A stretch of 64,000 nucleotides of DNA from a bacterium OM1 bin76. Lineage in GTDB: Bacteria > Actinomycetota > Acidimicrobiia > Spongiisociales > ZC4RG35. The notes beneath the pieces are model-generated. The model worked only from the letters and a program-made list of their open reading frames with translations, did no database searches and was not told the DNA's origin. The DNA is taken from NCBI GenBank assembly GCA_002238785.1, contig MPNA01000007.1, forward strand, positions 15,583 through 79,582, written 5' to 3'. Position numbers and translations under genes: made by a program. Shown in pieces: positions 1,440 through 13,557 of this stretch (positions are counted from its first letter, which is position 1; each line of letters opens with the position of its first letter).

Positions 1440-2804
1440 TGTTCGCTTGAGACGACCCGGCGTCGAAGGGGCGACAAGGTTTACGAGTACTTGTCGTTGG
1501 TGGAAACGGTTCGCAAGGGGTCGAAGATCGGCCATCGGACCCTGCTGCGCTTGGGAGAGGTCACTGCTTTACGCGAATCGGGACAGTTGGGACGGATCAT
1601 TTCGGCGTTGGAACGTCACCTCCACACCGAACGCGTCGACGTTGACGGAATAATCGCCGAGGGAGCACCCGCGGTGGGAGCGGTAGCCGCCGCGGCTGCG
1701 GTCTGGAAACAGTTGGATCTCGAGGGGGTTTCTTCTCACAGGTGGGCGCGGAACGCCGTGCTGACGTTTTGGAGGATGCGGTGTTCGCGATGGTGGCCAA
1801 CCGGCTGGTAGCCCCGTGTTCGAAACGTCGGTTGCCCGAATGGACAGAACATGACGTGATCATGCCTTCTGGGTGGTCAGCGCCGTCGTTGGACCAGTAC
1901 TACCGTGCCCTGGACGCCGTCGCCGACGTCAAAGAAGAGACCGAGGAGCACCTTTACCGGCGGTTGTGCAACCTGACCAACCTGAACCTTCGGCTGGTGT
2001 GCTATGACCTGACATCCACCTATTTCGAGGGTTCCACCCGACCCTCCGACGCGTTCCCGTCGCGGGTGTTCGGGTATTGGCGGGATCATCGCTCGGACAG
2101 GCCCCAGATCGTGATCGGTCTGTTGTGCACCACAGACGGGATCCCGATAGCCCATCATGTGTTCGCGGGGAACACCAACGACGCCTCCACCCTACCCGAC
2201 GTGTTGGAAGACCTGGCCAAGAGGTTCGCGGTGGGTCGGATCTGTGTGGTTTCCGACCGGGGTCTCATATCAGCATCTAACCTGGAAACGGTCACCCAAG
2301 CGGGGTTTGATCACCTGATGGCCACCAGACTCCACCGCGATCCGATCACCGCCCAAGCACTGGCGGCTGTCGACCAGGACACCGTGTGGGTTGAGATCCC
2401 CGAACACGGTTGCAGAGCCGCGGATGTCACCCTCGAAGACGGGACCCGCACGGTGGTGGTCGAAATGCGACGTTCGTGCCCGTCGGGACACCCAACGCAC
2501 CGCCGAACTGATCGCCGCTGCCGAAACCGGGTTGTTGGCGTTGGAACATCGCGTCCGCTCGGGAAGGCTCAAAGACCCGGCCAAGATCGGGAGAGCCGCG
2601 CAACGCATCCTCGGCACCGGGCGGGTCGGGCGACTGTTCGACCTCGAAATCGGACCAGGCCGGTTTCTCTACCACTACAACGAAGAAGCCCAAGCCTACG
2701 AGAAGCTGTTGGCGGGTCGTTATGTGCTGACCACCAGCCTCACACCCGCACAAGCCGACACTGGAATGAATCCCCCCGGCTTTTGTGGAGGCTTTCTATC
2801 TTGA
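1440..2804 (+). pseudogene. IS1634-like (IS4 superfamily) DDE transposase, split over three frames
   Basis: ORF 1398..1811 has GDKVYEYLSLVETVRKGSKIGHRTLLRLGEV, typical of an IS1634 N-terminus. ORF 1742..2845 has ...LVCYDLTSTYFEG...RDHRSDRPQIVIGLLCTTDGIPIAHHVFAGNTND. ORF 2391..2804 has ...FLYHYNEEAQAYEKLLAGRYVLTTSL, a typical C-terminus. There are two frame changes. Confidence 0.7.
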
Positions 2805-2855
2805 GAGGATGGAGTCTCATGGCCAGTAATAGTTCTGTTAGGTAATGCGACTGAG

Positions 2856-3125
2856 TTGCGTGAGCGTGCTGTGCGGATGGTCCTGGAAGGCGTCCGTGAG
2901 GGGGTGTATTCCTCCGAGTGGGCAGCGATCCGGGCGGTGGCGCAGATGCTGGGACCTACTCCCGAAACGGTTCGTAAGTGGGTTCGTAAGGCCGAATCGA
3001 GGGTCTCAGCGGCAGCGGTGGACCACAAACGTCGGATCGTTGAGTTGGAACGGGAGAACCGGGAGCTGCGGCGAGCGAACGAGATCTTGAAAGCTGCTTC
3101 GGCTTTTTTCGCGCGGGAGCCCTGA
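2856..3125 (+). CDS. IS3-family transposase OrfA (HTH / leucine-zipper)
   Basis: 89-aa MRERAVRMVLEGVREGVYSSEWAAIRAVAQMLGPTPETVRKWVRKAE...RIVELERENRELRRANEILKAASAFFA, a classic IS3 OrfA. Confidence 0.8.
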   Translation: MRERAVRMVLEGVREGVYSSEWAAIRAVAQMLGPTPETVRKWVRKAESRVSAAAVDHKRRIVELERENRELRRANEILKAASAFFAREP

Positions 3126-3143
3126 TCCGCGACCGCCAAGGTA

Positions 3144-4083
3144 GTGGCTTTCATCGATCGTTATCGGACCAGGTTCGGGATGCGGGCCGATCTGTCGGGT
3201 GCCTGGGCGAGCGCAATGTCGGAATGCGCCCCTTCCACCTACTACGCCTTCAAGTCCCGTCCGCCGTCAACAAGAGCCCAGCGCGACGGATGGCTTGTTG
3301 AACAGATCCGCCGCGTGCACCAGGAGAACTATGGGGTGTACGGCGCGGTGAAGGTATGGGCACAGTTGAACCGTGAAGGCACCCGAGTGGCGCGGTGCAC
3401 AGTGGAACGGCTGATGCGAAACACCGGTCCTGCGTGGTGTTTCCCGCGGGCGGCGCAAGGTGTGCACCACCGAACCCTCCGGGACTGACTATCCGGCTGA
3501 TCTGGTGGAACGGGACTTCACCGCCGGGGCGCCAGATCGTCTTTGGGTTGCCGATCTCACGTATATTCGCACGCGGGCTGGGTGGGTGTACGCGGCGTTC
3601 ATCATCGACGTGTACTCCAAGTTCATAGTGGGATGGCAGACCGCTACCACCCTCCGCGCCAGCCTGGCCGTGGACGCGTTGGAAATGGCTTTGGCCACCC
3701 GCCGGCGTCGAAACCCCGAGAAATTGATACATCATTCGGACAGGGGAAGCCAATATCTGTCCGTGCGGTACACCACCCGTTTGGCCGAAAGCCAGATCGT
3801 TTCCTCGGTGGGAAGCCGGGGCGACAGCCTGCGACAACGCCCTGGCCGAGACCACCATCGGTCTTTACAAGACCGAACTGATCAACCAACAGGGACCATG
3901 GCAAAACCTGGACCACACCACCTTCGCCACCCTCGAGTACATCGACTGGTACAACCACCGACGCCTACACGGAGGAATCACCCCCGACAACACCTACATC
4001 CCCCCCGCCGACCACGAAACCGCCTACCATCAAACCACCCCCAGAAAACCCGCAACCACACAAACAACCCACTCTCCATGAAA
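3144..4083 (+). pseudogene. IS3-family transposase OrfB (rve integrase core), internal frameshift near 3830
   Basis: DDE core motifs are present. The reading frame jumps between ORF 3460..4194 and the +1 frame, where the conserved C-terminal segment is encoded. Confidence 0.7.
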
Positions 4084-4174
4084 CCCGGGGAGGTTCAATC
4101 GAAGACAACCTCAATCTCATGCCCCCGACGACTACACAACTGGAACAGCGCCCACGACCTCTACAAATCAACTA

Positions 4175-4207
4175 GGGAGGGCAACCACCGCTAGAGCTTG
4201 CCCTCCC
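4175..4207. repeat. Perfect 10-bp inverted repeat (GGGAGGGCAA / TTGCCCTCCC) with a 13-nt loop at the IS3 right end
   Basis: Read directly from the sequence. No following T-run, so not a canonical intrinsic terminator. Confidence 0.5.
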
Positions 4208-4480: not shown

Positions 4481-5146
4481 TCACTCGTTTTCGAAAAACG
4501 TTGTTAGGTCGAAGGCATCGTTCAATATGGCGCCAACTATCAAACTCAACAAGGTGATGGCTGCCATACTCCACCATTTACGACGGTCCTCTAATGCGGA
4601 TACTCTCTCGGCAAGCGCAGTGGGATTATAGGTTGGGCCTCTGAGGTTACTGATGTGAGAATCGCTAATATTAACTGCATTCTGTCGCGGACCACAATAT
4701 AGATCCTCAGTTGCCTTGTCGAGAGAAACGTACCACAACTGGAAAGTCCGTTGGTCTTGTGTAAGGCTGATAGATTTGGAGCCTGCATTAAACACGGCGA
4801 AGATCAGTTTGCCTTTGTAGCCAGGATCAACGTGGAAGCCAGAGACATTTATCAATCCTTGCATCTTCTTGCTCGATTTCATTGACAGCAATCCGACGGC
4901 GTTGGCGGGGATTTCTACAACTTCGGAGATCAAGAGTTGAGCGAATTGTCCAGGGGGAATATTGACTCGTTCCTTATCATCTATTTTGACTCTGATCCTG
5001 GTTCCTGCGTTGGAACTATTGGTAACCCATGCTTCGTCTCCCATCGAGAGTTCATATGAACAGTTCTTAATGTGTGACTCATCGTATGGCTCGATCAAGC
5101 TCGGTAGTCTTGTCTTGAGGGTCTCACTACTCCAGAAACCGGACAT
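4481..5146 (-). CDS. dCTP deaminase/dUTPase-fold (Dcd-like) protein with a C-terminal transmembrane anchor; catalytic Glu replaced by Ala
   Basis: 221 aa. IEPYDESHIKNCSYELSMGDEAWV and GFHVDPGYKGKLIFAVFNAG align with Dcd motifs (E. coli: HRIDPGWSGCIVLEFYN), but the LEF glutamate is an alanine. C-terminal WWSMAAITLLSLIVGAILNDAF is a predicted TM helix. Strong AAGGAGA RBS upstream. AT-richer than the flanks. Confidence 0.7.
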   Translation of the reverse strand: MSGFWSSETLKTRLPSLIEPYDESHIKNCSYELSMGDEAWVTNSSNAGTRIRVKIDDKERVNIPPGQFAQLLISEVVEIPANAVGLLSMKSSKKMQGLINVSGFHVDPGYKGKLIFAVFNAGSKSISLTQDQRTFQLWYVSLDKATEDLYCGPRQNAVNISDSHISNLRGPTYNPTALAERVSALEDRRKWWSMAAITLLSLIVGAILNDAFDLTTFFENE

Positions 5147-5513: not shown

Positions 5514-6569
5514 TCATCTTGCTCGGCCCACTGACCTGTATTGTTGACGTTCGTTCTGCGAGCTTATGCTAACCCTCCTCAACCAACGATGCCATAACTT
5601 TCTATACACAGGATTGGTGCAGGTGGCCATAGCGTGATCATGCATCTCATCCCACCCTAGCCTCCGTGCTATTTCACTGGCCAGCACGGCAAGCATGTTA
5701 CGGAATGCCTCCGGGCCTTCATCCCAACGGACGACTCTTTCCAGTTGTGGGCGCCGTAGGCCAGGCGCGATCAGTCGCTCCATCCTTCGGCCCAACTCTT
5801 TGAATGCCGCTTCTGATTTCTCCTTGGGGAGCGCAAGCGAGTCTGTGTTTCGTAGCCGGTTTGGCGGCGTCTGTGAGGCGAATACATTCTCTTCGTCATG
5901 TTCATACATGTGCAGGCTGTCGCTCAGTTGGTGATAGGGACCACAATCGACGCCAAGCCACCCGGCCACAACCTCTTGAAGACTGGTGAACTGTACGAAG
6001 TTGTGAGGAACCCCTAAGAAGAGATCATTGCTTCGTAGTACCTGAAGCCACTCCAGCTTCCCTTCGCGGACCTTCAACAGTGCGAACACATTGCAAGGGA
6101 CATCCCGACTGGTGGGCAAACCCTCAGGGTCGGGAAGGTCGACGGACGAGTCCCAGATTTGCAGTACAACCTGCCGGGTGTCCGGGTTACTGCTTAGCAC
6201 CTGATAGGCCCGAGTTAGTTGGTCTACCCCCATGTGGTAGCGGAGTCGATGCCCATAGGCCCCATGAAGGTGGGGGCCTTCTCCCACATAGTCGGAGAGT
6301 TTGCTGTTCCACGCCCGGAGGAAAGCAAGATCGTTACGACCTGTCATGATCCAAACGATCTCGGCAATGGCGAAGGCAACATTCATGGGAGGTTGGCGGG
6401 AAACCACCCATCGTTGTCGCGGATCATTGATGGTGATGGCTGCATGGAGGATTTCTTTGGTTGCACCACCTCTACTTGGTTGGAGGAGGACACCATGGCC
6501 TGCCCGGAATGCCTCCACGACTTGCTCCCAGACTTCATCTGCGTCTTGGCCTTCAAACGCCCTAATCAT
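5514..6569 (-). CDS. Thymidylate synthase-family (ThyA / pyrimidine-nucleotide C5 hydroxymethylase-like) protein, paralogue 1, with a ~90-aa C-terminal extension
   Basis: 351 aa, colinear with ThyA: AIAEIVWIMTGRNDL (ELLWFIKGSTN), GVDQLTRAYQVLSSNPDTRQVVLQIWD (DQL..IK.NPDSRRII.SAWN), VPCNVFALLKVREGKLEWLQVLRSNDLFLGVPHNFVQF ([36 protein letters not shown]). Nucleophile Cys retained. Asn equivalent to N177 retained. PCH becomes PCN and RR becomes RQ. Confidence 0.75.
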   Translation of the reverse strand: MIRAFEGQDADEVWEQVVEAFRAGHGVLLQPSRGGATKEILHAAITINDPRQRWVVSRQPPMNVAFAIAEIVWIMTGRNDLAFLRAWNSKLSDYVGEGPHLHGAYGHRLRYHMGVDQLTRAYQVLSSNPDTRQVVLQIWDSSVDLPDPEGLPTSRDVPCNVFALLKVREGKLEWLQVLRSNDLFLGVPHNFVQFTSLQEVVAGWLGVDCGPYHQLSDSLHMYEHDEENVFASQTPPNRLRNTDSLALPKEKSEAAFKELGRRMERLIAPGLRRPQLERVVRWDEGPEAFRNMLAVLASEIARRLGWDEMHDHAMATCTNPVYRKLWHRWLRRVSISSQNERQQYRSVGRAR

Positions 6570-8247
6570 GAGATGTTCCGAGAGGAGGTATCAGGCTGTT
6601 GATGCCCCACTTGGGGGGATACCAATACTCTATTGGCTCTGTTGAGGGGCGATAGATTTGCTTGATACGGGAACGGTTGCCGATGCCTTTGAAATCGGGA
6701 TGCTTAACGCGGGCATACTTTGAGACCTCGCAGAAGAGGTTCTGGCAGTCTATGAGCTGAAGTCTTCTGCCCCAAAGGTCTACAAACCGCAGGCCGAGGC
6801 GGTCGAACTCTTCTTCCTGGCGTTCGGTGACCATTCTTATGAGTTCAGCGTCGGTCAAACCGCCCAGGTCAGTGAAACATTTACGGACGCCGTCTATCGC
6901 CCCGGGGCCAGGAACGACGAACTCCATTTCTGAGAAGTCGATAACTTCGCTGTAGTTCAGGTCGGTCACGAATTGGTAGGCAAGGAAATCGCCGATGGAC
7001 GGGTAGGAGCGCAACAAACCGAAGGCGTCCCGCATCCTGCGTGTCCCTGCGATCCTCTTGGGTAACTCGTCTGCCATCATCCGCTCGATGAGCCGGAGAT
7101 GATTGCGGTGCTTTCGGGAATGTCCGAAGACGCGCCCGGCCGATGGCATAATGTAGGCGGCGGAATAGATTGGTCGACCCTCGGCGAGTGCTTGCGACAG
7201 CACCCCGTTGTAGGCGTCGAACGAGTATGACGAGTACTCAACATCCCCCAAGGCGGCTCTGAGCAGCTCCCAAGTCCCAATCCTGTTGAAAACCTTGAAT
7301 AGCAGGGTACGAAAGAACACTTCTTCTGAGGATTGTGGACCCTGGTAGATGACGTTGCGGATGAGGTACTGGCTTACCCGATCAGAGGCTCGGTATGCGT
7401 TAGTGAACTTGAAGCGGGCCAATATCGGGTCGTCCGTCCAGGGAGGTGAACAGCCTTCGAGTCGGCGAAAGAACACTTCTTGGCGTTTCACCGCGAACCG
7501 CCAATAGGTGTCATAGACAACGGTCGGCTTCGCCGGTGAGAGGCGTGGCATTTTCGGTGGCTGGAGTGTTCTGCCATCAAGGAGTGCTGGTTGGCCACTT
7601 AGCTGAGCCACTGCCGGAGAATCTTGCCGTTCGCTGAATCTGCGTACGGTAGAAATAATCGTCTTCCACGCCATGTCAAGGGCGTGCTCAACAGACGAGT
7701 CGTTGTGTAGCGTGACCACATGGGAGCGGATCTGTTCTCGCTTCGCCAGCGCCCGATACCCGTCCCGCAGGTCATCACCATTGTCTGAATCCGCACTCTC
7801 GCGCTCTACCAGAAACACCATGTCCGGCTTGATTTGCTTCCAGTGGAGTCGCTCCAGTTCGATCATCGCCTCCAACGAGGGCTCTGACACTCCAAATGCA
7901 CCGCCATAGACCCGTGTGGACCACCAGAAGCGGTCCAAGACTATCCAAGAGCCTGTACGGAGGGCAGGCAGGATGTGCTCTTCTACGGCCTCTATATGAG
8001 CCGCAATGTGCAGGATCTGAAGACTTGTCGCGTTGACCTTGCCGAGGCCAAAGCTGGGTGCGTCGTGGTGGAGGTCATAGACCAGACGGCCCAGAGAGCC
8101 TAACTGCCTCCCTGGAAAGGATAGGTTTTCGCAGGGAACGCCCGCCTCGTGGAGGCGGTTTGTGAATAGCTCGGCAAGGGTACTCTTACCGACGCCGTCG
8201 CGCCCCTCGAACACGATGAGCCTGCCCGGGGTTTGCTGCTCTGTCAT
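6562..8247 (-). CDS. Fusion protein: N-terminal dTMP-kinase-family P-loop (d)NMP kinase plus C-terminal ~340-aa domain of unknown function
   Basis: 561 aa. The N-terminus matches Tmk: LIVFEGRDGVGKSTLAELF (FIVIEGLEGAGKTT), LSFPGRQ (TREPGGT), ILHIAAHIEAVEEHILPALRTGSWIVLDRFWWSTRVYGG ([38 protein letters not shown]), PDMVFLVE. The C-terminal part (TVVYDTYWRFAVKRQEVFFRR...ILARFKFTNAYRASDRVSQYL...GIGNRSRIKQIYRPS) matched no family I could name. Its start overlaps the next gene (ATGA). Confidence 0.7.
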   Translation of the reverse strand: MTEQQTPGRLIVFEGRDGVGKSTLAELFTNRLHEAGVPCENLSFPGRQLGSLGRLVYDLHHDAPSFGLGKVNATSLQILHIAAHIEAVEEHILPALRTGSWIVLDRFWWSTRVYGGAFGVSEPSLEAMIELERLHWKQIKPDMVFLVERESADSDNGDDLRDGYRALAKREQIRSHVVTLHNDSSVEHALDMAWKTIISTVRRFSERQDSPAVAQLSGQPALLDGRTLQPPKMPRLSPAKPTVVYDTYWRFAVKRQEVFFRRLEGCSPPWTDDPILARFKFTNAYRASDRVSQYLIRNVIYQGPQSSEEVFFRTLLFKVFNRIGTWELLRAALGDVEYSSYSFDAYNGVLSQALAEGRPIYSAAYIMPSAGRVFGHSRKHRNHLRLIERMMADELPKRIAGTRRMRDAFGLLRSYPSIGDFLAYQFVTDLNYSEVIDFSEMEFVVPGPGAIDGVRKCFTDLGGLTDAELIRMVTERQEEEFDRLGLRFVDLWGRRLQLIDCQNLFCEVSKYARVKHPDFKGIGNRSRIKQIYRPSTEPIEYWYPPKWGINSLIPPLGTSHD

Positions 8248-9059
8248 TTGCCCGCCTTTAACTGTTCCAAGATTCTCTCGACATCCCGTGCCAGTTTCTG
8301 AAGGGATCTCTTTGTGCGATCGCGTTTCGCAGGACTTGCCACGCAGGTCACCTGGGTTAGCTGCCTACCCATCTCCTGGGCCATGAAACGGCCGAGCCGG
8401 CACAAGCCCAGATAGTTACCGTAGGCACGTTCATAGATGTACTGCGTGGCATAGAACCCTGTCACCGTCAACCCGTCTGAGCCTTGCTGCGCAAACGCTA
8501 CCTGTTGAAGGCAGGGAAAGCCTCTCATACGCTGATTGGTGTGGTCCCTGTGTGGGTCAAAGATCGCCGCTTGTAATGCTGACCTGCGATGGTTGCCTCT
8601 GTGCCATGTTTGGATGATGTGTTCCAGTTGGTTGACGCTGTCCCCGTTGGCGGCGTTGCGGCCGTAGGCGATGAGGCGTTGGAAGTAGACGCCGTTCCTG
8701 TTGCTAGCGTCCTTGAGCACACGCGGCATGATTTGTCTGTAACGTCGGTATAGCTGTTGACGATCTGCTTCCGGGTTCCAGAGCGAGACGGGGAAAATGG
8801 TGTTGGCGACCTTGTGACAGGAGAGGGATTTGGCTTCGGCACCCAAGGCATCATCAAGGAGTTCACGTATTGGTGCTACTTCCAGGGGCTCCCCATGGTC
8901 GAACCCGCGAATCACGACTGTTAGAGGCGCAATCTCACTCCTGGCCATCAAGTGGAGGAACGCCCTAGCCCAGGCGACGGAGAGGTTGCCCTCTTCAATC
9001 GTAAGTGATCTACCCATCCCCAGCTTCTTCCCAGTGCCGGTACAGGGCACGCCCCACAT
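8244..9059 (-). CDS. Thymidylate synthase-fold protein, paralogue 2 (divergent; most catalytic residues other than Cys are lost; C-terminally short)
   Basis: 271 aa. VPCTGTGKKLGMGRS (DRTGTGTLSIFGHQ), NQLEHIIQTWHRGNHRRSALQAAIFDP ([26 protein letters not shown]), GFPCLQQVAFAQQGSDGLTVTGFYATQ ([24 protein letters not shown]), NYLGLCRLGRFMAQE (NIASYALLVHMMAQ). Lacks the equivalents of R166, D169 and N177. The 5' end overlaps the ImmA gene. Confidence 0.6.
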   Translation of the reverse strand: MWGVPCTGTGKKLGMGRSLTIEEGNLSVAWARAFLHLMARSEIAPLTVVIRGFDHGEPLEVAPIRELLDDALGAEAKSLSCHKVANTIFPVSLWNPEADRQQLYRRYRQIMPRVLKDASNRNGVYFQRLIAYGRNAANGDSVNQLEHIIQTWHRGNHRRSALQAAIFDPHRDHTNQRMRGFPCLQQVAFAQQGSDGLTVTGFYATQYIYERAYGNYLGLCRLGRFMAQEMGRQLTQVTCVASPAKRDRTKRSLQKLARDVERILEQLKAGK

Positions 9060-9870
9060 ACCCGCGTCGCGAAACGCGGACGAACGTAGACCAAGAATTG
9101 CCGGCTTCCAGCCGGCCGACTCCTGGGCTGGTCGCTATGAAGATAGAGCCCTGCTCAATGTCTGAAAAGGGCTCGAGGCAGACACTCTCTGGCTGCGCTC
9201 CACCTAGGACCAATATGAGGTCACCCACTTCCACATCCACGGCCCTCCCGATCCAGTGGGTATCCAACACCAAGGCGGTCTGTGACGCGTACCACCCGAG
9301 GAGCAGCGATTGAGCTTTACGGGAGCCCACTCTCAACAGCGTCCTAGCCCGCATGCCCGGTAACACTTGGAGCGCGCTTCGCAGATGGTGAACCAGCGTC
9401 GCGTATCCAACGCCAAAGTAGCCGGCAACCATAAAAGCCTGCTCGGGTGTACAGTCCTCCATGCTCCACCCTCGAAGCGCAAATGCCTTGGATACCGCCA
9501 ACTTGGGCATGAGAAGAGCACCCGCAAAGCAATCCGCCATGAACTCCTTGGGATCGAAACGAGGGTTGTCCCATTGCCCAACCAGTTCGTCGATATCCAC
9601 TCCGTCACTCTGGTTGTGGTGACCAAGTTCGTGGGCACAGGTAAACGCCCGGCGGCCGGGTGGGCGTAACGAGGAGACGATAATAGTGGGAGTGGAAACA
9701 GATAGGTACATTCCCTCCATACTGGGAAGGTCCAGAAACCGAACCTCAATGCCAAGTTTCTGAGCGAGATCGTACACAGAGACAGCGTGGTCAAGCCCGT
9801 AGCCAACCGAAAGACGGGTACGGAGGGCCGCCGCCGTTGCCTCTCGGGCTATCAATCGCCGGTTGCTCAT
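9010..9870 (-). CDS. ImmA/IrrE-family (Peptidase_M78/DUF955, CapP-like) zinc metallopeptidase
   Basis: 286 aa with HEXXH at CAHELGHH. Sits immediately downstream of, and overlapping, an XRE HTH gene, the classic XRE/ImmA arrangement. Confidence 0.8.
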   Translation of the reverse strand: MSNRRLIAREATAAALRTRLSVGYGLDHAVSVYDLAQKLGIEVRFLDLPSMEGMYLSVSTPTIIVSSLRPPGRRAFTCAHELGHHNQSDGVDIDELVGQWDNPRFDPKEFMADCFAGALLMPKLAVSKAFALRGWSMEDCTPEQAFMVAGYFGVGYATLVHHLRSALQVLPGMRARTLLRVGSRKAQSLLLGWYASQTALVLDTHWIGRAVDVEVGDLILVLGGAQPESVCLEPFSDIEQGSIFIATSPGVGRLEAGNSWSTFVRVSRRGYVGRALYRHWEEAGDG

Positions 9871-10220
9871 TCGATGTGATTTCTCGGAGCGCGGAGCGCC
9901 TGGACAAGCTGGAGAATGCGGTCAAGGTCCTCTTCTCGCAACTTGCTCAACTCCCTCGCCGCTAGCTTCACGCGATCCGCAGCCAAGCTCGACTCCTCGT
10001 CCCCCTCACCCACGATCCAAGAAATACTGACCCCGTACATCTCAGCCAGCGCAGTGAGTTCCTCGGCAGATACCCTTCTGCGAGCTGCTTCGATCTCGGA
10101 AACCGTAGGACGGTGCCAGTCCAGACTCTTGGCTACCTGACCTTGGGTGAGACCTGCCATCTCTCTCGACAGGCGAAGACGTGATGCGATTGCCTTTCGC
10201 TTCTCTTCGTATTTGGTCAT
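9867..10220 (-). CDS. XRE-family helix-turn-helix transcriptional regulator (CapH/ImmR-like)
   Basis: 117 aa: ...LRLSREMAGLTQGQVAKSLDWHRPTVSEIEAARRRVSAEELTALAEMYGVSISWIV, an HTH_3-type motif. Confidence 0.8.
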   Translation of the reverse strand: MTKYEEKRKAIASRLRLSREMAGLTQGQVAKSLDWHRPTVSEIEAARRRVSAEELTALAEMYGVSISWIVGEGDEESSLAADRVKLAARELSKLREEDLDRILQLVQALRAPRNHIE

Positions 10221-10223
10221 CCT

Positions 10224-10508
10224 TTAGGCCTCAGAGCCGACATAGGAACAAAGGGAGTCCGCTATCTCGCCAACCGACAATGCACGCTTCCCATCCTCAG
10301 AAATGAAGGGGTTGTAGTTGCCGGGAAGCTCCACCTTTAGGGACTCCGAAAGCATGACGGTCGCTTCCACCCCGCTAAGGCTGTCGAAGCCCTCCACCCC
10401 AAACACCGGGCACGTTGACGCATCTATGCCAGCACTTGACCGCCCGCTCACCTCTTGGACCTCGACGATGACTTGAACCACCCTCTTCAGGATCTCTTGC
10501 TTGTTCAT
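10224..10508 (-). CDS. Small carrier-protein-like (ACP/PCP-fold) protein, first gene of the operon
   Basis: 94 aa. LKRVVQVIVEVQEV...FGVEGFDSLSGVEATVMLSESLKVELP resembles the ACP DSL phosphopantetheine-attachment motif and helix pattern. AGGAGG RBS 5-11 nt upstream of the ATG. This assignment is tentative. Confidence 0.4.
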   Translation of the reverse strand: MNKQEILKRVVQVIVEVQEVSGRSSAGIDASTCPVFGVEGFDSLSGVEATVMLSESLKVELPGNYNPFISEDGKRALSVGEIADSLCSYVGSEA

Positions 10509-10526
10509 AAGTACCTCCTTACCGCA

Positions 10527-10543
10527 GGTAAGATTATCTTACC
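10527..10543. promoter_or_regulatory. Perfect palindrome GGTAAGAT-T-ATCTTACC about 19 bp upstream of the operon start codon; candidate XRE operator
   Basis: Read directly from the sequence. 8-bp arms with a 1-nt spacer, just upstream of the RBS of the first gene of the minus-strand operon. Confidence 0.45.
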
Positions 10544-10853
10544 ATAAGAAGCCGAGCGGTCAAAACATAACCCAATATTGCTCACCGACAGACCGGTCCT
10601 AAAGGGACAGCGTTGTTGCCCGTCCCGCATTGCTTTGGTAGGCGGCGTTCGGGCTGGCTACCGTCAGGATGGGCGGTTCGGATGTATGCGGGGCTCCTGA
10701 TATTTGCTTGGAGAGCATCTTGATTGGGAGACAACGAGCTAGGTCCAGATCCGTGTTGGAGAGTGGTGGCAACAGGCCGCTGTAAGGAGTCGGCGATTCT
10801 TTGTCAAGAGTCTCCTGGGGGCGGGTGTAACTGTATCCTGACGGACTGTCATC

Positions 10854-11072
10854 TCATGGGCACGTACCCACAGTAGAAGGAGCCATCACCCGGAACGGCA
10901 ACACCCGACTGGTGGAAACCCGCCCGAAGCTGATCCACACCGTTCCATCCACCAACTGTTCCAACCCCAACCGATCAACCAACGTCCCCGCCGTTAACAA
11001 CCCGGCGTCAGCCACCAAAGACTCATCATCGAAAACCACCCCAAAACGATTCGATACTCTGCAATACTCCAC
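10854..11072 (-). pseudogene. Transposase N-terminal remnant (IS1380/IS4-like)
   Basis: 72 aa: NRFGVVFDDESLVADAGLLTAGTLVDRLGLEQLVD, typical of IS1380/IS4-family transposase N-termini. Nothing follows it. Confidence 0.45.
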
Positions 11073-11431
11073 TCACAGGAAGTGCCTCCCAACTGTGGAC
11101 CAACAGCTTCTTCGCTAACAGCTATTGTCCCAGATCAGAGGCACTCTCCGCCTCTATCCACCCACCCACCAACCACACCCCATCGGTGGATTGAGGCTAA
11201 GAATCCGTCAAATCGCTATTCTGACTTTACGGCCCCGCCGCCCTGTGTCTTCAACTGGACCTAATGTCTTTCTCTGTCGAAGACGAATGCCTGTACTCCA
11301 TCCGAACTGATGTACCCTCTCTCTCAGGTCAAGAGTGGAACAGAGCAGTCGGTCACGGTAAGTTTTGGTACTATAAGTAGTATTAAGGCACTCTACTGTG
11401 GCTGTGACCTGGGATTATGTTGAGATCATAG

Positions 11432-11523
11432 CGGAGGCGGACGGGAATCGAACCCGCCGGGGATCGTTTGACCCCCCACCGGTTTTGAAGACCGGGGAGC
11501 CCACCAGGCGCTCGCTCGCCTCC
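11432..11523 (-). tRNA. selC: tRNA-Sec (selC-like), anticodon UCA, 92 nt, class II
   Basis: Reverse complement: GGAGGCGAGCGAGCGCCTGGTGGGCTCCCCGGTCTTCAAAACCGGTGGGGGGTCAAACGATCCCCGGCGGGTTCGATTCCCGTCCGCCTCCG. Anticodon stem CCGGT/ACCGG with loop CUUCAAA (identical to the E. coli selC loop), a long variable arm, T-loop TTCGATT, and 13 nt (8+5) between T-loop and discriminator. The 8th acceptor pair is an A.C mismatch. CCA is not encoded. Confidence 0.7.
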
Positions 11524-11992: not shown

Positions 11993-12327
11993 GGCGTGGA
12001 CACGCTTCGGTGGGTGTCGTGATGAGGGTTGAGATGACGACGGTGAGGTCCACGATGGCAAGTCTTCGTAACGGGGGAACTGTCCGCCTGTAGGCCTCTT
12101 CAGTCTGCTGAGAGTCGTTCTGTCTGGTTACGCGTCTCGGGGCACTTCTTGGTTGATTTGTAACGGTTGTTCCGGGTGTCGTTGGGAGTTGTTCTGGCTT
12201 TTGCCCTGTACCGAGACGAAAAGTCGACTGAGGGGAGGACTCCAAACATTAAGTTATTAGTGTTTGTTTTCATAACTTAGTGTTGTGTAGAGGTGTTTTG
12301 TCACAGGACCTGTGCATACTGGTGGAT

Positions 12328-13557
12328 ATGAAAACAGAGTCTGCGAACCGGGCGGCCGTGAACAGGGCGCGTCTGCTGAGGCCTACCATGCCGGTGGCCG
12401 AGGCGTCGGTGGAACAGCTTAGACAGCGGATAAGGTCCACGATCCGCGTTCAGAACCAGGCTGCTGCGGACCGTGCCGAAGCGGTAGCGGAACTGGATCG
12501 ACGCCAGGGTACAGAATTGGTGGAAACCGTGCTGCGGGAGGATGGGCTGTTGGGCAGACGGCGGGCCCGGTCGGAGGTGGAAACTGCCAAAGAGTTGGAA
12601 GAGTTGCCCAAGACCCGGGAGGGTTTCCAAAAGGGAGACATCTCTGCGGACAACGCCCGCATCCTGGCCAGTGCTAACCAGCGGGGAACCATCAAAGAGG
12701 ACGAGTTGTTGGATGATGCCCGTTCTCAGTCTCCTGATAAGTTCGCCCGGTCGGTCCGAAAGCACGAACAACGACAGTCCCGTGATGATGGTGTTTCGAG
12801 GTTGGAGCATCAGCGTTCCCACCGGTTCGCGAAGATCACCACCGATGCCGACGATGGGATGACCGTGTTGTATGGGCGGTTCGACCCTGTTACGGGCGCT
12901 CGGATCGAAACGGCGGTGTCGGCGATGATGAACCAGTTGTGGCACAAAGAGGACCCCACCGATCGGGCCACGGCTCCACAGCGGATGGCCGACGCCCTAG
13001 CAAAACTTCTTACTCGTCAAGGGAAGGGCGGGGAGGGTCGTTCTCAGGATGTGCGACTGTTGTTGATCGCCGACTACGACGCGGTCAGCGGACGGTTGGG
13101 CAACCCCCGCTTGGAGAACGGCACCCCGGTTCCGGCGGGGACGTTGCGCCGTTTGGGGTGTGATGCTCAGGTACTGCCTGCTGTCTTCTCGGGTGGTTCG
13201 ATACCGCTGGACCTGGGGCGGGCCCGGCGTACCGCCAGCGGTTCCCAACGCGCTGCTTTGGTTGCCCGCGACAGACACTGTGTGGGTTGCGGCGCCAAAG
13301 CGTCCTGGTGTCAGGCTCACCATATCGTTCATTGGCAGGACGGAGGCCCCACCAGTTTGGAGAACATGTGCCTGCTGTGCAGCCGGTGTCACCACAAGGT
13401 TCATGACCAAGACTGGACCGTGCACCAAACCCCAACCGGGAAGTACACGCTACGTCGGCCGCCGATCACCGACTGGCGACGACCCTCCCGCCAAACCAAC
13501 CACCACCCCCGCCGTCGGCGACGCACCCGCAAACACCCCATCAAACAAAGAAAATGA
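12328..13557 (+). CDS. DUF222 + HNH endonuclease domain protein (REP13E12-like)
   Basis: C-terminal CVGCGAKASWCQAHHIVHWQDGGPTSLENMCLLCSRCHHKVH is an HNH motif. The N-terminal region is DUF222-like, as commonly seen in actinobacteria. Confidence 0.7.
   Translation: MKTESANRAAVNRARLLRPTMPVAEASVEQLRQRIRSTIRVQNQAAADRAEAVAELDRRQGTELVETVLREDGLLGRRRARSEVETAKELEELPKTREGFQKGDISADNARILASANQRGTIKEDELLDDARSQSPDKFARSVRKHEQRQSRDDGVSRLEHQRSHRFAKITTDADDGMTVLYGRFDPVTGARIETAVSAMMNQLWHKEDPTDRATAPQRMADALAKLLTRQGKGGEGRSQDVRLLLIADYDAVSGRLGNPRLENGTPVPAGTLRRLGCDAQVLPAVFSGGSIPLDLGRARRTASGSQRAALVARDRHCVGCGAKASWCQAHHIVHWQDGGPTSLENMCLLCSRCHHKVHDQDWTVHQTPTGKYTLRRPPITDWRRPSRQTNHHPRRRRRTRKHPIKQRK

Follow-up and report, generated by a model that had tools for sequence, protein, structure and literature searches.

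The 64,000-nucleotide window of the Acidimicrobiia bacterium OM1 bin76 analyzed here (GenBank assembly GCA_002238785.1, contig MPNA01000007.1, positions 15,583 to 79,582) carries a cassette of seven genes, arranged head to tail on the minus strand between window positions 4481 and 10563. Two of these genes encode thymidylate synthase (TS)-like proteins, a larger one (bTS) and a smaller one (sTS), and between them lies a gene for a nucleotide kinase domain fused to the helical domain of phage 5-hydroxymethyl-deoxyuridine (5-hmdU) DNA kinases. We propose, with a probability of roughly 0.55, that this cassette is a normally repressed anti-phage defence built from the thymidine-hypermodification toolkit of phages. 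The proposal builds on folds, conserved catalytic residues, gene order, co-occurrence, a conserved promoter and operator, and homology both to the anti-phage system DS-4 and to phage hypermodification clusters; from these we infer the defence itself, its induction, the substrates and products of the enzymes, and the role of sTS. Within a known but barely understood kind, that of hypermodification-derived defence candidates with one tested relative, the cassette is a distinct variant built around a previously undescribed TS-fold family. A previous reading of this DNA (the original prediction) had described the two TS-like genes as paralogues in one operon, namely a near-complete enzyme (paralogue 1, here bTS) and a catalytically stripped one (paralogue 2, here sTS).

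Gene order, control region and distribution of the cassette

The control elements, genes and domains of the cassette are listed below with their window positions, strand and the evidence for each assignment.

10536-10563, minus strand: promoter-like site from a consensus scan, with a -35 box TTGACC (10563-10558), a 16-nucleotide (nt) spacer and a -10 box TAAGAT (10541-10536)
10514-10543, minus strand: candidate operator from sequence reading, with the inverted repeat GGTAAGAT-A-ATCTTACC (10543-10527) over the -10 box
10224-10508, minus strand: P94, 94 amino acids (aa), acyl-carrier-protein-like, first gene of the operon (FDS motif; Foldseek)
9867-10220, minus strand: HTH, 117-aa XRE-type helix-turn-helix protein, CapH-like (Pfam HTH_31, E-value (E) 6e-15; PADLOC capH, E 6.9e-12)
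9010-9870, minus strand: M78, 286-aa metallopeptidase of the IrrE/ImmA type, CapP-like (Pfam Peptidase_M78, E 1.3e-18; PADLOC capP, E 4.7e-17)
8244-9017, minus strand: sTS, 257 aa, paralogue 2 of the original prediction (NCBIfam TIGR03283, E 2.5e-11; structure model; Foldseek)
6562-8247, minus strand: kinase-helical fusion protein, 561 aa, between sTS and bTS
7798-8226, minus strand: thymidylate-kinase-like P-loop domain, aa 8-150 of the 561-aa protein (Pfam Thymidylate_kin, E 2.8e-15)
6685-7521, minus strand: HMUDK_hel domain (PF18723), aa 243-521 of the 561-aa protein (Pfam, E 1.4e-111)
5514-6569, minus strand: bTS, 351 aa, paralogue 1 of the original prediction (Pfam Thymidylat_synt, E 1.3e-21)
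4481-5146, minus strand: DCD-fold protein, 221 aa, with a dCTP-deaminase/dUTPase fold (Pfam DCD, E 4.9e-16; TIGR02274, E 2e-19, below its cut-off)

The first six genes are tightly packed, with junctions of +3, -4, -8, -4 and -8 nt, and a gap of 367 nt precedes the DCD-fold gene. Both TS-like open reading frames (ORFs) are real, their products have a TS fold and they share a tight operon, as previously stated; their description as paralogues did not hold, as detailed below. The two genes had also been treated as a pair, with no mention of the 561-aa gene between them (6562-8247), which is key to their context. The second ORF, given as 271 aa (8244-9059), does exist, and an upstream in-frame ATG at 9059 would yield that length. 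The likely start is nevertheless the ATG at 9017, which gives 257 aa, because most homologues (including an entry with 100% identity) have this length and because it produces an 8-nt overlap with the upstream gene, as elsewhere. The residue numbers of sTS used here follow the 257-aa version.

The control region is conserved well beyond this genome. On its own, the consensus scan that returned the promoter-like site was not above chance; the arrangement TTGAC(A)-N17-TAAGAT was found at an equal distance from gene 1 in over 40 related loci of many different phyla. Besides the inverted repeat there is a third GGTAAG half-site (10523-10518), which extends into the ribosome-binding site GGAGG. The complete layout, TTGAC(A)-N17-(G)GTAAGAT-N1-3-CTTACC-N4-6-GTAAGGAG-N6-ATG, is kept across phyla (in the window and in loci L002-L066) and, because it includes the promoter, indicates that the whole unit travels as a cassette. 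The operator was recognized by sequence reading and locus comparison; a default repeat search upstream of the genes returned long-range pairs only. At the head of the operon, the HTH and M78 genes overlap by 4 nt. The HTH protein would bind the GGTAAG candidate operator, and the cassette is probably kept off until a signal arrives. By analogy with the CapH/CapP pair, on which Lau et al. reportedly published in 2022, this signal may be infection or DNA damage.

Using a 10-sequence alignment, we fetched 72 genomic loci with relatives of sTS. These came from Chloroflexota, Thermodesulfobacteriota, Latescibacterota, Planctomycetota, Acidobacteriota, Verrucomicrobiota, Myxococcota and Proteobacteria, and included the cultured hosts Rubrobacter marinus, Paraburkholderia xenovorans LB400 and Pandoraea aquatica. 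Our literature search found no paper naming the cassette. Components were counted in the 59 loci that had enough flanking sequence.

Helical domain: 58 of 59 loci
M78 peptidase: 57 of 59 loci
HTH: 56 of 59 loci
P94: 52 of 59 loci
Kinase domain: 38 of 59 loci
MazG/MazG_C: 31 of 59 loci
bTS: 30 of 59 loci
DCD-fold gene, within 6 kb of sTS: 26 of 59 loci

The gene for sTS adjoins that for the helical domain in 58 of these 59 loci, and the two overlap by 4 nt in the window. The constant core of the cassette hence consists of P94, HTH, M78, sTS and the helical enzyme, while the kinase domain and bTS form an optional module in which bTS is always accompanied by the kinase domain (30/30). Meanwhile, 25 of the 29 loci that lack bTS carry a MazG/MazG_C match, with or without the DCD-fold gene; in 18 of these 25, the search detected no kinase domain and the helical enzyme is a separate 360-aa protein, often accompanied by a DCD-fold gene. 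This second architecture is seen in P. xenovorans LB400 (L054, 7538-11817) and in L024 (7510-12643), where a 360-aa helical enzyme occurs with no kinase domain or bTS and with a MazG plus MazG_C (predicted kinase) protein.

The flanks of the LB400 cassette encode a SIR2-domain protein and an OLD-like ATPase/TOPRIM protein. More generally, the neighbours of the related loci include type I restriction-modification, TIR+SLATT, PIN, SIR2 and OLD-like genes. Homologues of the Nmad2 protein of DS-4 were detected by tblastn within 6 kb of sTS in 6 of the 59 loci, which hints at module exchange between the cassette and DS-4-type systems.

The TS-fold enzymes and the kinase-helical fusion

The smaller TS-fold protein, sTS, had no match in Pfam. 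Its score against TIGR03283, the archaeal-type TS model of NCBIfam, was 43.5 bits, compared with a cut-off of 174.55. An AlphaFold model of sTS (pLDDT 95.9) was matched by Foldseek to TS, to MilA, to T4-type deoxycytidine monophosphate (dCMP) hydroxymethylases and to a flavin-dependent phage dCMP hydroxylase, and to nothing else (E around 1e-9, probability 1.00, TM-scores of 0.52-0.63). Two of these neighbours, 9iqu and 9iqc, are recent deposits of TS-fold enzymes from phages, with descriptions as flavin-dependent dCMP hydroxylases, and they show that the TS fold can work without folate; no paper on structures of the AfhB dCMP hydroxylase turned up in our literature search. At the sequence level, sTS is only weakly linked to known TS: phmmer returned no matches in the PDB, and the top TS match of a 57-sequence sTS profile against the PDB reached only E 1.5. 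The fold assignment therefore rests on the NCBIfam match and on the structure model, according to which sTS is a TS-fold protein. Alignment of the sTS family to a bTS/ThyA alignment with hhalign gave a probability of 1.7%, the hidden Markov model of sTS produced just a short local match around the Cys in bTS-family sequences, and pairwise BLAST between sTS and bTS gave E 0.015 on a non-equivalent stretch. Judging from these comparisons, the two proteins are not paralogues in any recent sense and have the fold alone in common; a recent duplication was rejected.

We found that sTS represents a separate, undescribed TS-fold family without a Pfam model. The family is large (one search returned 2882 matches, another 1022 clusters at 50% identity), and its members are 40-80% identical across phyla. 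Among 57 diverse sequences, 13 residues were invariant (F75, Y111, F112, Q130, D158, F167, P168, C169, G200, N201, G204, L208, and F211), and these hold likewise in 74-78 genomic copies. In the TS register, C169 is the nucleophile, within an invariant FPC motif, Y111 corresponds to Tyr94, and R144/R145 correspond to the Arg126/Arg127 pair. The original prediction was right that the Cys is kept, and had not noted that Tyr94 and the arginine pair are kept too. Missing from sTS are the R21 loop, Glu58, His147 (replaced by L170), the H207/Y209 motif and, as had been noticed, the C-terminal segment of ThyA, since the protein ends some 30 residues past its last core strand. Counting along the predicted beta-hairpin places A190 at Arg166, T191 at Ser167, and Y193 at Asp169, so that the earlier claim that R166 and D169 are lost is plausible by this register. 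The loss of N177 claimed alongside them was probably a mis-registration. The invariant N201 is paired with N177 of ThyA by hhalign (in the alignment with 1.7% probability) and lies exactly 10 residues past the Ser167 equivalent, which matches the spacing of N177 in ThyA; it thus probably corresponds to Asn177.

A protein with 13 invariant residues, the nucleophilic Cys among them, that is also the more constant component of the cassette is at odds with the description of sTS as catalytically stripped. We instead read sTS as an active enzyme whose pocket is modified and probably independent of folate; the protein appears to be without the folate-closing parts of TS. It would form a homodimer working alongside the helical enzyme, and a reasonable guess for the chemistry of this constant pair is that a nucleotide or DNA undergoes substitution or elimination at its 5-methylene carbon.

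The larger protein, bTS, displayed a different set of relationships. Beyond its Pfam match, it scored below the cut-offs of the curated TS models (79.3 bits compared with 174.55 for TIGR03283, and 64.5 compared with 327 for NF002497). The nearest solved structure is the CMP hydroxymethylase MilA (E 1e-25), and the protein matches phrog_5131 (E 6e-61). The top phage relatives in tblastn searches (33-38% identity) came from PaMx11, Ab18/19, ZC01, CP-51, and SPO1-like and ViI-like phages, the DNA of which carries 5-hmdU or its derivatives; the ZC01 homologue is annotated as a deoxyuridylate hydroxymethyltransferase. Its gene starts at 6569, directly downstream of the gene for the helical domain, which ends at 6562, and coordinates revealed the same order of HMUDK_hel followed by TS in PaMx11 (gp50, gp51), Epa5, and AIIMS-Plu-RaNi.

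Alignment to Escherichia coli ThyA, with the reference sequence checked against the PDB, confirmed all the motifs originally reported for this protein. R33, E70, Y105, and R132 of bTS correspond to R21, E58, Y94, and R126 of ThyA; C159 is the nucleophile C146 (VPCN), followed by N160 in place of H147 (PCH to PCN); Q133 replaces R127 (RR to RQ); R179, S180, and D182 are R166, S167, and D169; and N190, H220, and Y222 are N177, H207, and Y209. A helical C-terminal extension of about 120 aa replaces the C-terminal segment of ThyA, to which it is unrelated. The catalytic residues are kept in 32 of 32 related loci, with Asn at the N177 position in 31. The original prediction listed the changes as departures in a near-complete enzyme. 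PCN, Asn at the 177 position, and a long C-terminal tail are common to PaMx11 gp51, to SPO1-like (Goe26) and ViI-like (BRM13312) homologues, and to the TS of DS-4. Because PCN, RQ, and the tail are shared by phage deoxyuridine monophosphate (dUMP) hydroxymethylase-type enzymes and DS-4, and are invariant in 32 of 32 loci, they are hallmarks of a clade rather than signs of decay; the signature of this clade (PCN, Asn177, a complete complement of dUMP-binding residues, and a long helical tail) is our own reading of the alignment and has no published definition. From its sequence, bTS is best read as a dUMP-hydroxymethylase-type enzyme. It looks fully competent and, through Asn190, uracil-specific, in line with the specificity first assigned to it. 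By analogy with its phage relatives, its product would be a 5-substituted dUMP, most likely 5-hydroxymethyl-dUMP.

A few bTS homologues carry Asp in place of Asn at the N177 equivalent (L016, identical to L001, 8153-9193; P0200, P0167, and P0177). The same change makes T4 gp42 and the N229D mutant of the Lactobacillus casei enzyme act on cytosine. Some copies of the cassette may therefore hydroxymethylate dCMP, given these Asp-bearing homologues.

The 561-aa protein between the two joins a kinase to a helical enzyme. The top PDB relatives of the kinase domain are thymidylate kinases, with the P-loop and the DR(F) motif aligned, and a PADLOC match to PDC-M51B was confined to this P-loop domain. 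The HMUDK_hel domain (PF18723), formerly named aGPT-Pplase clade 1, is 29% identical to its DS-4 counterpart (E 5e-35) and 27% identical to PaMx11 gp50 (E 2e-24). It contains an adjacent Cys506-Glu507 pair within NLFCEVSKY (nt 6727-6732), which is kept in 74 of 74 loci. Clade-2 relatives cannot do without an adjacent Cys and Glu, of which the Cys attacks C6 of 5-phosphomethyl-deoxyuridine in DNA and expels the phosphate (PMC8989533); equating the pair of the window with that catalytic pair rests on resemblance of the motif, not on an alignment. No protein of the operon matched PF18724, the clade-2 aGPT-Pplase (amino-acid:DNA transferase) model, which PaMx11 gp46 does match. Both sTS and the helical enzyme seem to carry the defining feature of enzymes whose thiol attaches to pyrimidine C6 for chemistry at C5.

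Genomic setting and proposed function

The remaining proteins of the cassette are less easily placed. P94 looks acyl-carrier-protein-like, judging from its model and motif. The FDS motif stands at the start of helix 2 and is invariant in 58 homologues; the match to Pfam PP-binding (E 0.04, 14.6 bits) is below the cut-off of 20.8; the model (pLDDT 72) has helices at residues 3-21, 44-56, and 79-93; and the top 50 PDB matches in Foldseek are all acyl carrier proteins. No phosphopantetheinyl transferase or acyl-handling enzyme was found in the operon. Meanwhile, the DCD-fold protein of the window ends in a hydrophobic helix (aa ~194-212). Strongly hydrophobic C-terminal helices were present in nearly all cassette-linked DCD-like proteins, with 19-residue Kyte-Doolittle maxima of 1.75-3.06 (ORFs of L010, L011, L022, L024-L026, L034, L036, L041, L044, L057, L058, L062-L065, L067, and L072), suggesting that the protein is membrane-anchored, which is unusual for its enzyme family.

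The features around the cassette are as follows.

1742-2845, plus strand: DDE transposase near the cassette
2856-4194, plus strand: insertion sequence (IS) transposase of the IS3 family, frameshifted orfA/orfB, bounding the island (Pfam HTH_Tnp_1 and rve)
10854-11072, minus strand: IS-transposase fragment, from ORF translation, between the cassette and tRNA-SeC
11431-11523, minus strand: tRNA-SeC adjoining the island (ARAGORN)
12280-13557, plus strand: DUF222-HNH endonuclease gene near the island, a side observation

The GC content of the cassette block is 55.4%, compared with 63.3% in the rest of the window, and housekeeping genes (RecO, an aminoacyl-tRNA synthetase) begin near 14.2 kb. The cassette is most likely a horizontally mobile, low-GC island bounded by IS elements beside a tRNA gene. 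The tRNA-SeC and the IS and transposase remnants near it suggest arrival by insertion at or near the tRNA gene. The nearest database copies come from an Acidimicrobiia metagenome bin.

We postulate the following course of events. The CapH-like HTH protein would repress the operon at the GGTAAG operator, and the CapP-like M78 protease would relieve this repression upon infection or DNA damage. The DCD-fold protein and host enzymes would then supply dUMP, which bTS would convert into a 5-substituted dUMP, and the thymidylate-kinase-like domain would phosphorylate this product towards the triphosphate, to be incorporated into replicating, mainly phage, DNA. The helical Cys-Glu domain and sTS would perform further C5/C6 chemistry, in the nucleotide pool or in DNA, leaving DNA or the nucleotide pool unusable by the phage. 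Phosphorylation of 5-hydroxymethyluracil (5-hmU) in DNA turns bacterial transcription off in vitro (PMC6457204), which shows that base chemistry such as 5-hmU phosphorylation can disable DNA and, by analogy, could do so here. A more specific version is possible, and we hold it only tentatively: the derepressed cassette would turn thymidine hypermodification on phages, with a 5-substituted deoxyuridine nucleotide, or DNA in which it is present, being processed by sTS (through altered chemistry, possibly a folate-independent 5-methylene substitution), by the Cys-Glu enzyme and perhaps by the acyl-carrier-protein-like carrier, so that the resulting lesion or adduct would stop phage replication or transcription.

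Several observations weigh against the proposed defence. The kinase domain is thymidylate-kinase-like and shows no similarity to PaMx11 gp49, a 5-hmdU DNA kinase (E 1.9); as it is not of that phage family, there is no support for phosphorylation of DNA. In phage M6, the reconstituted reaction did not need gp55, the clade-1 helical protein (PMC8989533). About half of the loci lack bTS, so the core cannot depend on 5-hydroxymethyl-dUMP made by it. The role of sTS in the cassette is guesswork, and those of the acyl-carrier-protein-like P94 and the membrane-anchored DCD-fold protein are unexplained. The conserved core includes no nuclease or other obvious killing effector, no other recognized defence gene adjoins the cassette in the window, and PADLOC has no model for sTS or bTS. 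Finally, DS-4, the nearest tested relative, is just 26-29% identical and has other partners.

Other explanations draw on parts of the same evidence. A defence acting on the nucleotide pool without any DNA chemistry strikes us as rather unlikely. It would deplete or corrupt deoxynucleoside triphosphates (through dCTP deamination, dUMP consumption, or a dead-end or chain-terminating analogue) or produce a signal sensed by a membrane-anchored DCD-fold killer. The kinase domain is a nucleotide kinase, the alternative modules are a MazG pyrophosphohydrolase and MazG_C kinase, and the C-terminal hydrophobic helix of the DCD-fold protein resembles the membrane effectors of signalling systems, all of which would suit such a defence, as would dCTP deaminases, which Tal et al. 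reportedly described in 2022 as depletion-type defences. However, the near-universal helical domain, with its Cys-Glu pair kept, belongs to a DNA-glycosylase-like family whose characterized members act on DNA, the DCD-fold gene occurs in too few loci (26/59) to be a general effector, and depletion alone needs no two TS-fold enzymes. Somewhat more doubtful still is a cluster for self-modification of DNA, captured from a phage or left by a prophage, that modifies host thymidines, for instance against a partner nuclease. Each enzyme type does have a counterpart in phage hypermodification, the gene order matches PaMx11 gp49-gp51, and the related loci often lie beside type I restriction-modification genes. 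Yet no phage structural genes or integrase were found near the cassette, a search of 50,697 phage records found no relatives of sTS and just 3 of 2.9 million viral contigs carried it, the PF18724 transferase and the phage-type DNA kinase are missing, no conserved partner nuclease was found across the 59 loci, and the conserved repressor/protease pair with an operator over the -10 box argues for a function that is off in normal growth. A restriction-like system aimed at phage DNA already containing hmU was rejected, as the cassette encodes its own hydroxymethylase-type enzyme.

The partnership favoured by the original prediction, in which an active TS-type enzyme is joined by a degenerate paralogue as its regulatory subunit or heterodimer partner, has become very improbable. 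TS-fold enzymes are obligate dimers sharing arginines across the interface, sTS keeps RR where bTS has RQ, and both are encoded in one operon. Against this stands the modularity of the cassette: bTS is missing from 29 of the 59 loci with sTS, and bTS-type proteins occur without sTS in phages and in DS-4, which argues against both an obligate heterodimer and a dead regulatory subunit. Moreover, the two proteins lack detectable sequence similarity, the 13 residues invariant in sTS, its nucleophile among them, form a set of their own, and it is the helical enzyme rather than bTS that constantly adjoins sTS. The least probable of all is a spare or alternative route to deoxythymidine monophosphate (dTMP), that is, a second thyA-like pathway on a mobile island, despite a thymidylate-kinase-like domain lying between sTS and bTS and NCBI naming homologues of both proteins "thymidylate synthase". 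Scores far below the curated TS cut-offs, the absence of His147, Arg127, and the ThyA C-terminus from bTS and of the R21 loop and E58 from sTS, the low-GC, IS-flanked island, and CapH/CapP-like control in a defence-island context are unlike housekeeping metabolism, and here the original prediction, which spoke against housekeeping dTMP synthesis, was well founded. Both the heterodimer and a housekeeping or backup thyA were rejected.

These findings have implications for the study of phage defence, as defences that work by making a modified base in DNA or a modified nucleotide have hardly been explored and the proposed defence cassette is a well-defined, widely conserved subject, with a five-gene core, a recognizable operator, two interchangeable nucleotide-supply modules, and cultured hosts. 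The sTS family, which keeps the nucleophile and has the rest of its pocket rebuilt, is a candidate for new pyrimidine C5 chemistry, and the cassette provides a first functional handle on clade-1 aGPT-Pplase/HMUDK_hel proteins. The "thymidylate synthase" labels that both proteins bear in many genomes mislead metabolic reconstruction.

Comparison with known systems

The closest tested relative of the cassette is DS-4 (working name NTTI), an anti-phage system of E. coli validated in the DefensePredictor study (Science 2026, PMC13092281), which gave some protection. It consists of a TS-like protein, a deoxynucleoside monophosphate kinase, an HMUDK_hel protein, a TIR protein, and Nmad2, and its TS and 5-hmU-kinase domains were listed as new to defence (PMC13092281). 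Like the cassette, DS-4 combines a P-loop nucleotide kinase with a TS that has PCN and a long C-terminal tail (361 aa, 26% identity to bTS, E 4e-18) and with an HMUDK_hel protein in which the Cys-Glu motif recurs. Its kinase is separate and adenylate-kinase-like, whereas that of the window is thymidylate-kinase-like and fused, and it adds a ThsB-like TIR and Nmad2; tblastn of the DS-4 kinase, TIR, and Nmad2 against the window gave nothing below E 0.1. In turn, DS-4 has no sTS, acyl-carrier-protein-like protein, CapH/CapP, or DCD-fold protein. The same study contains an untested prediction of a system with a MazG-C kinase, a dUTPase, and an aGPT-Pplase (Fig. S12C, PMC13092281). By its domain list only, it resembles the second architecture of the cassette (sTS, helical enzyme, DCD-fold protein, and MazG/MazG_C, as in LB400), while the window has the other architecture; the absence of a TS-like gene from the legend of that figure is consistent with sTS lacking a Pfam model.

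The phage thymidine-hypermodification clusters (PaMx11, M6, ViI, PhiW-14, and SP10; Lee et al. 2018, 2021) likewise combine a dUMP hydroxymethylase-type TS with an HMUDK_hel gene directly upstream and a kinase before it. The PaMx11 genes for gp49 (a validated DNA kinase), gp50 (PF18723), and gp51 (TS-like) follow the window order of kinase, helical domain, and bTS. In the phage pathway, a deaminase provides dUMP, a TS homologue turns it into 5-hydroxymethyl-dUMP, a nucleotide kinase leads this to the triphosphate, and polymerases incorporate it (PMC8989533). Plausible candidates for all of these steps are encoded in the window, and the supply of dUMP by a dCMP/dCTP deaminase is a further likeness to the cassette. 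In contrast, the phage DNA kinase is of another P-loop family, the phage clusters add PF18724 transferase, pyridoxal phosphate, radical S-adenosylmethionine, or flavin enzymes that are all absent from the cassette, and they are without sTS, the acyl-carrier-protein-like protein, and the repressor/protease pair. Their purpose also differs, being the protection of the phage's own DNA. The domains themselves are said to have been first described by Iyer et al. in 2013 and Burroughs et al. in 2015.

With ThyA, T4 gp42, SPO1-type dUMP hydroxymethylase, and MilA, both bTS and sTS share the fold and the nucleophilic Cys. Compared with ThyA, bTS has the traits of the hydroxymethylase clade, namely Asn for His147, Gln for Arg127, and the helical tail. 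The control genes, meanwhile, are reminiscent of the CapH/CapP pair of CBASS (cyclic-oligonucleotide-based anti-phage signalling system) and other defences, in which an XRE helix-turn-helix gene followed by an M78 gene likewise stands at the head of the operon, with an inverted-repeat operator over the promoter. The cassette differs in that an acyl-carrier-protein-like gene precedes the pair, and its effectors are nucleotide- or DNA-modification enzymes rather than a cyclase plus effector.

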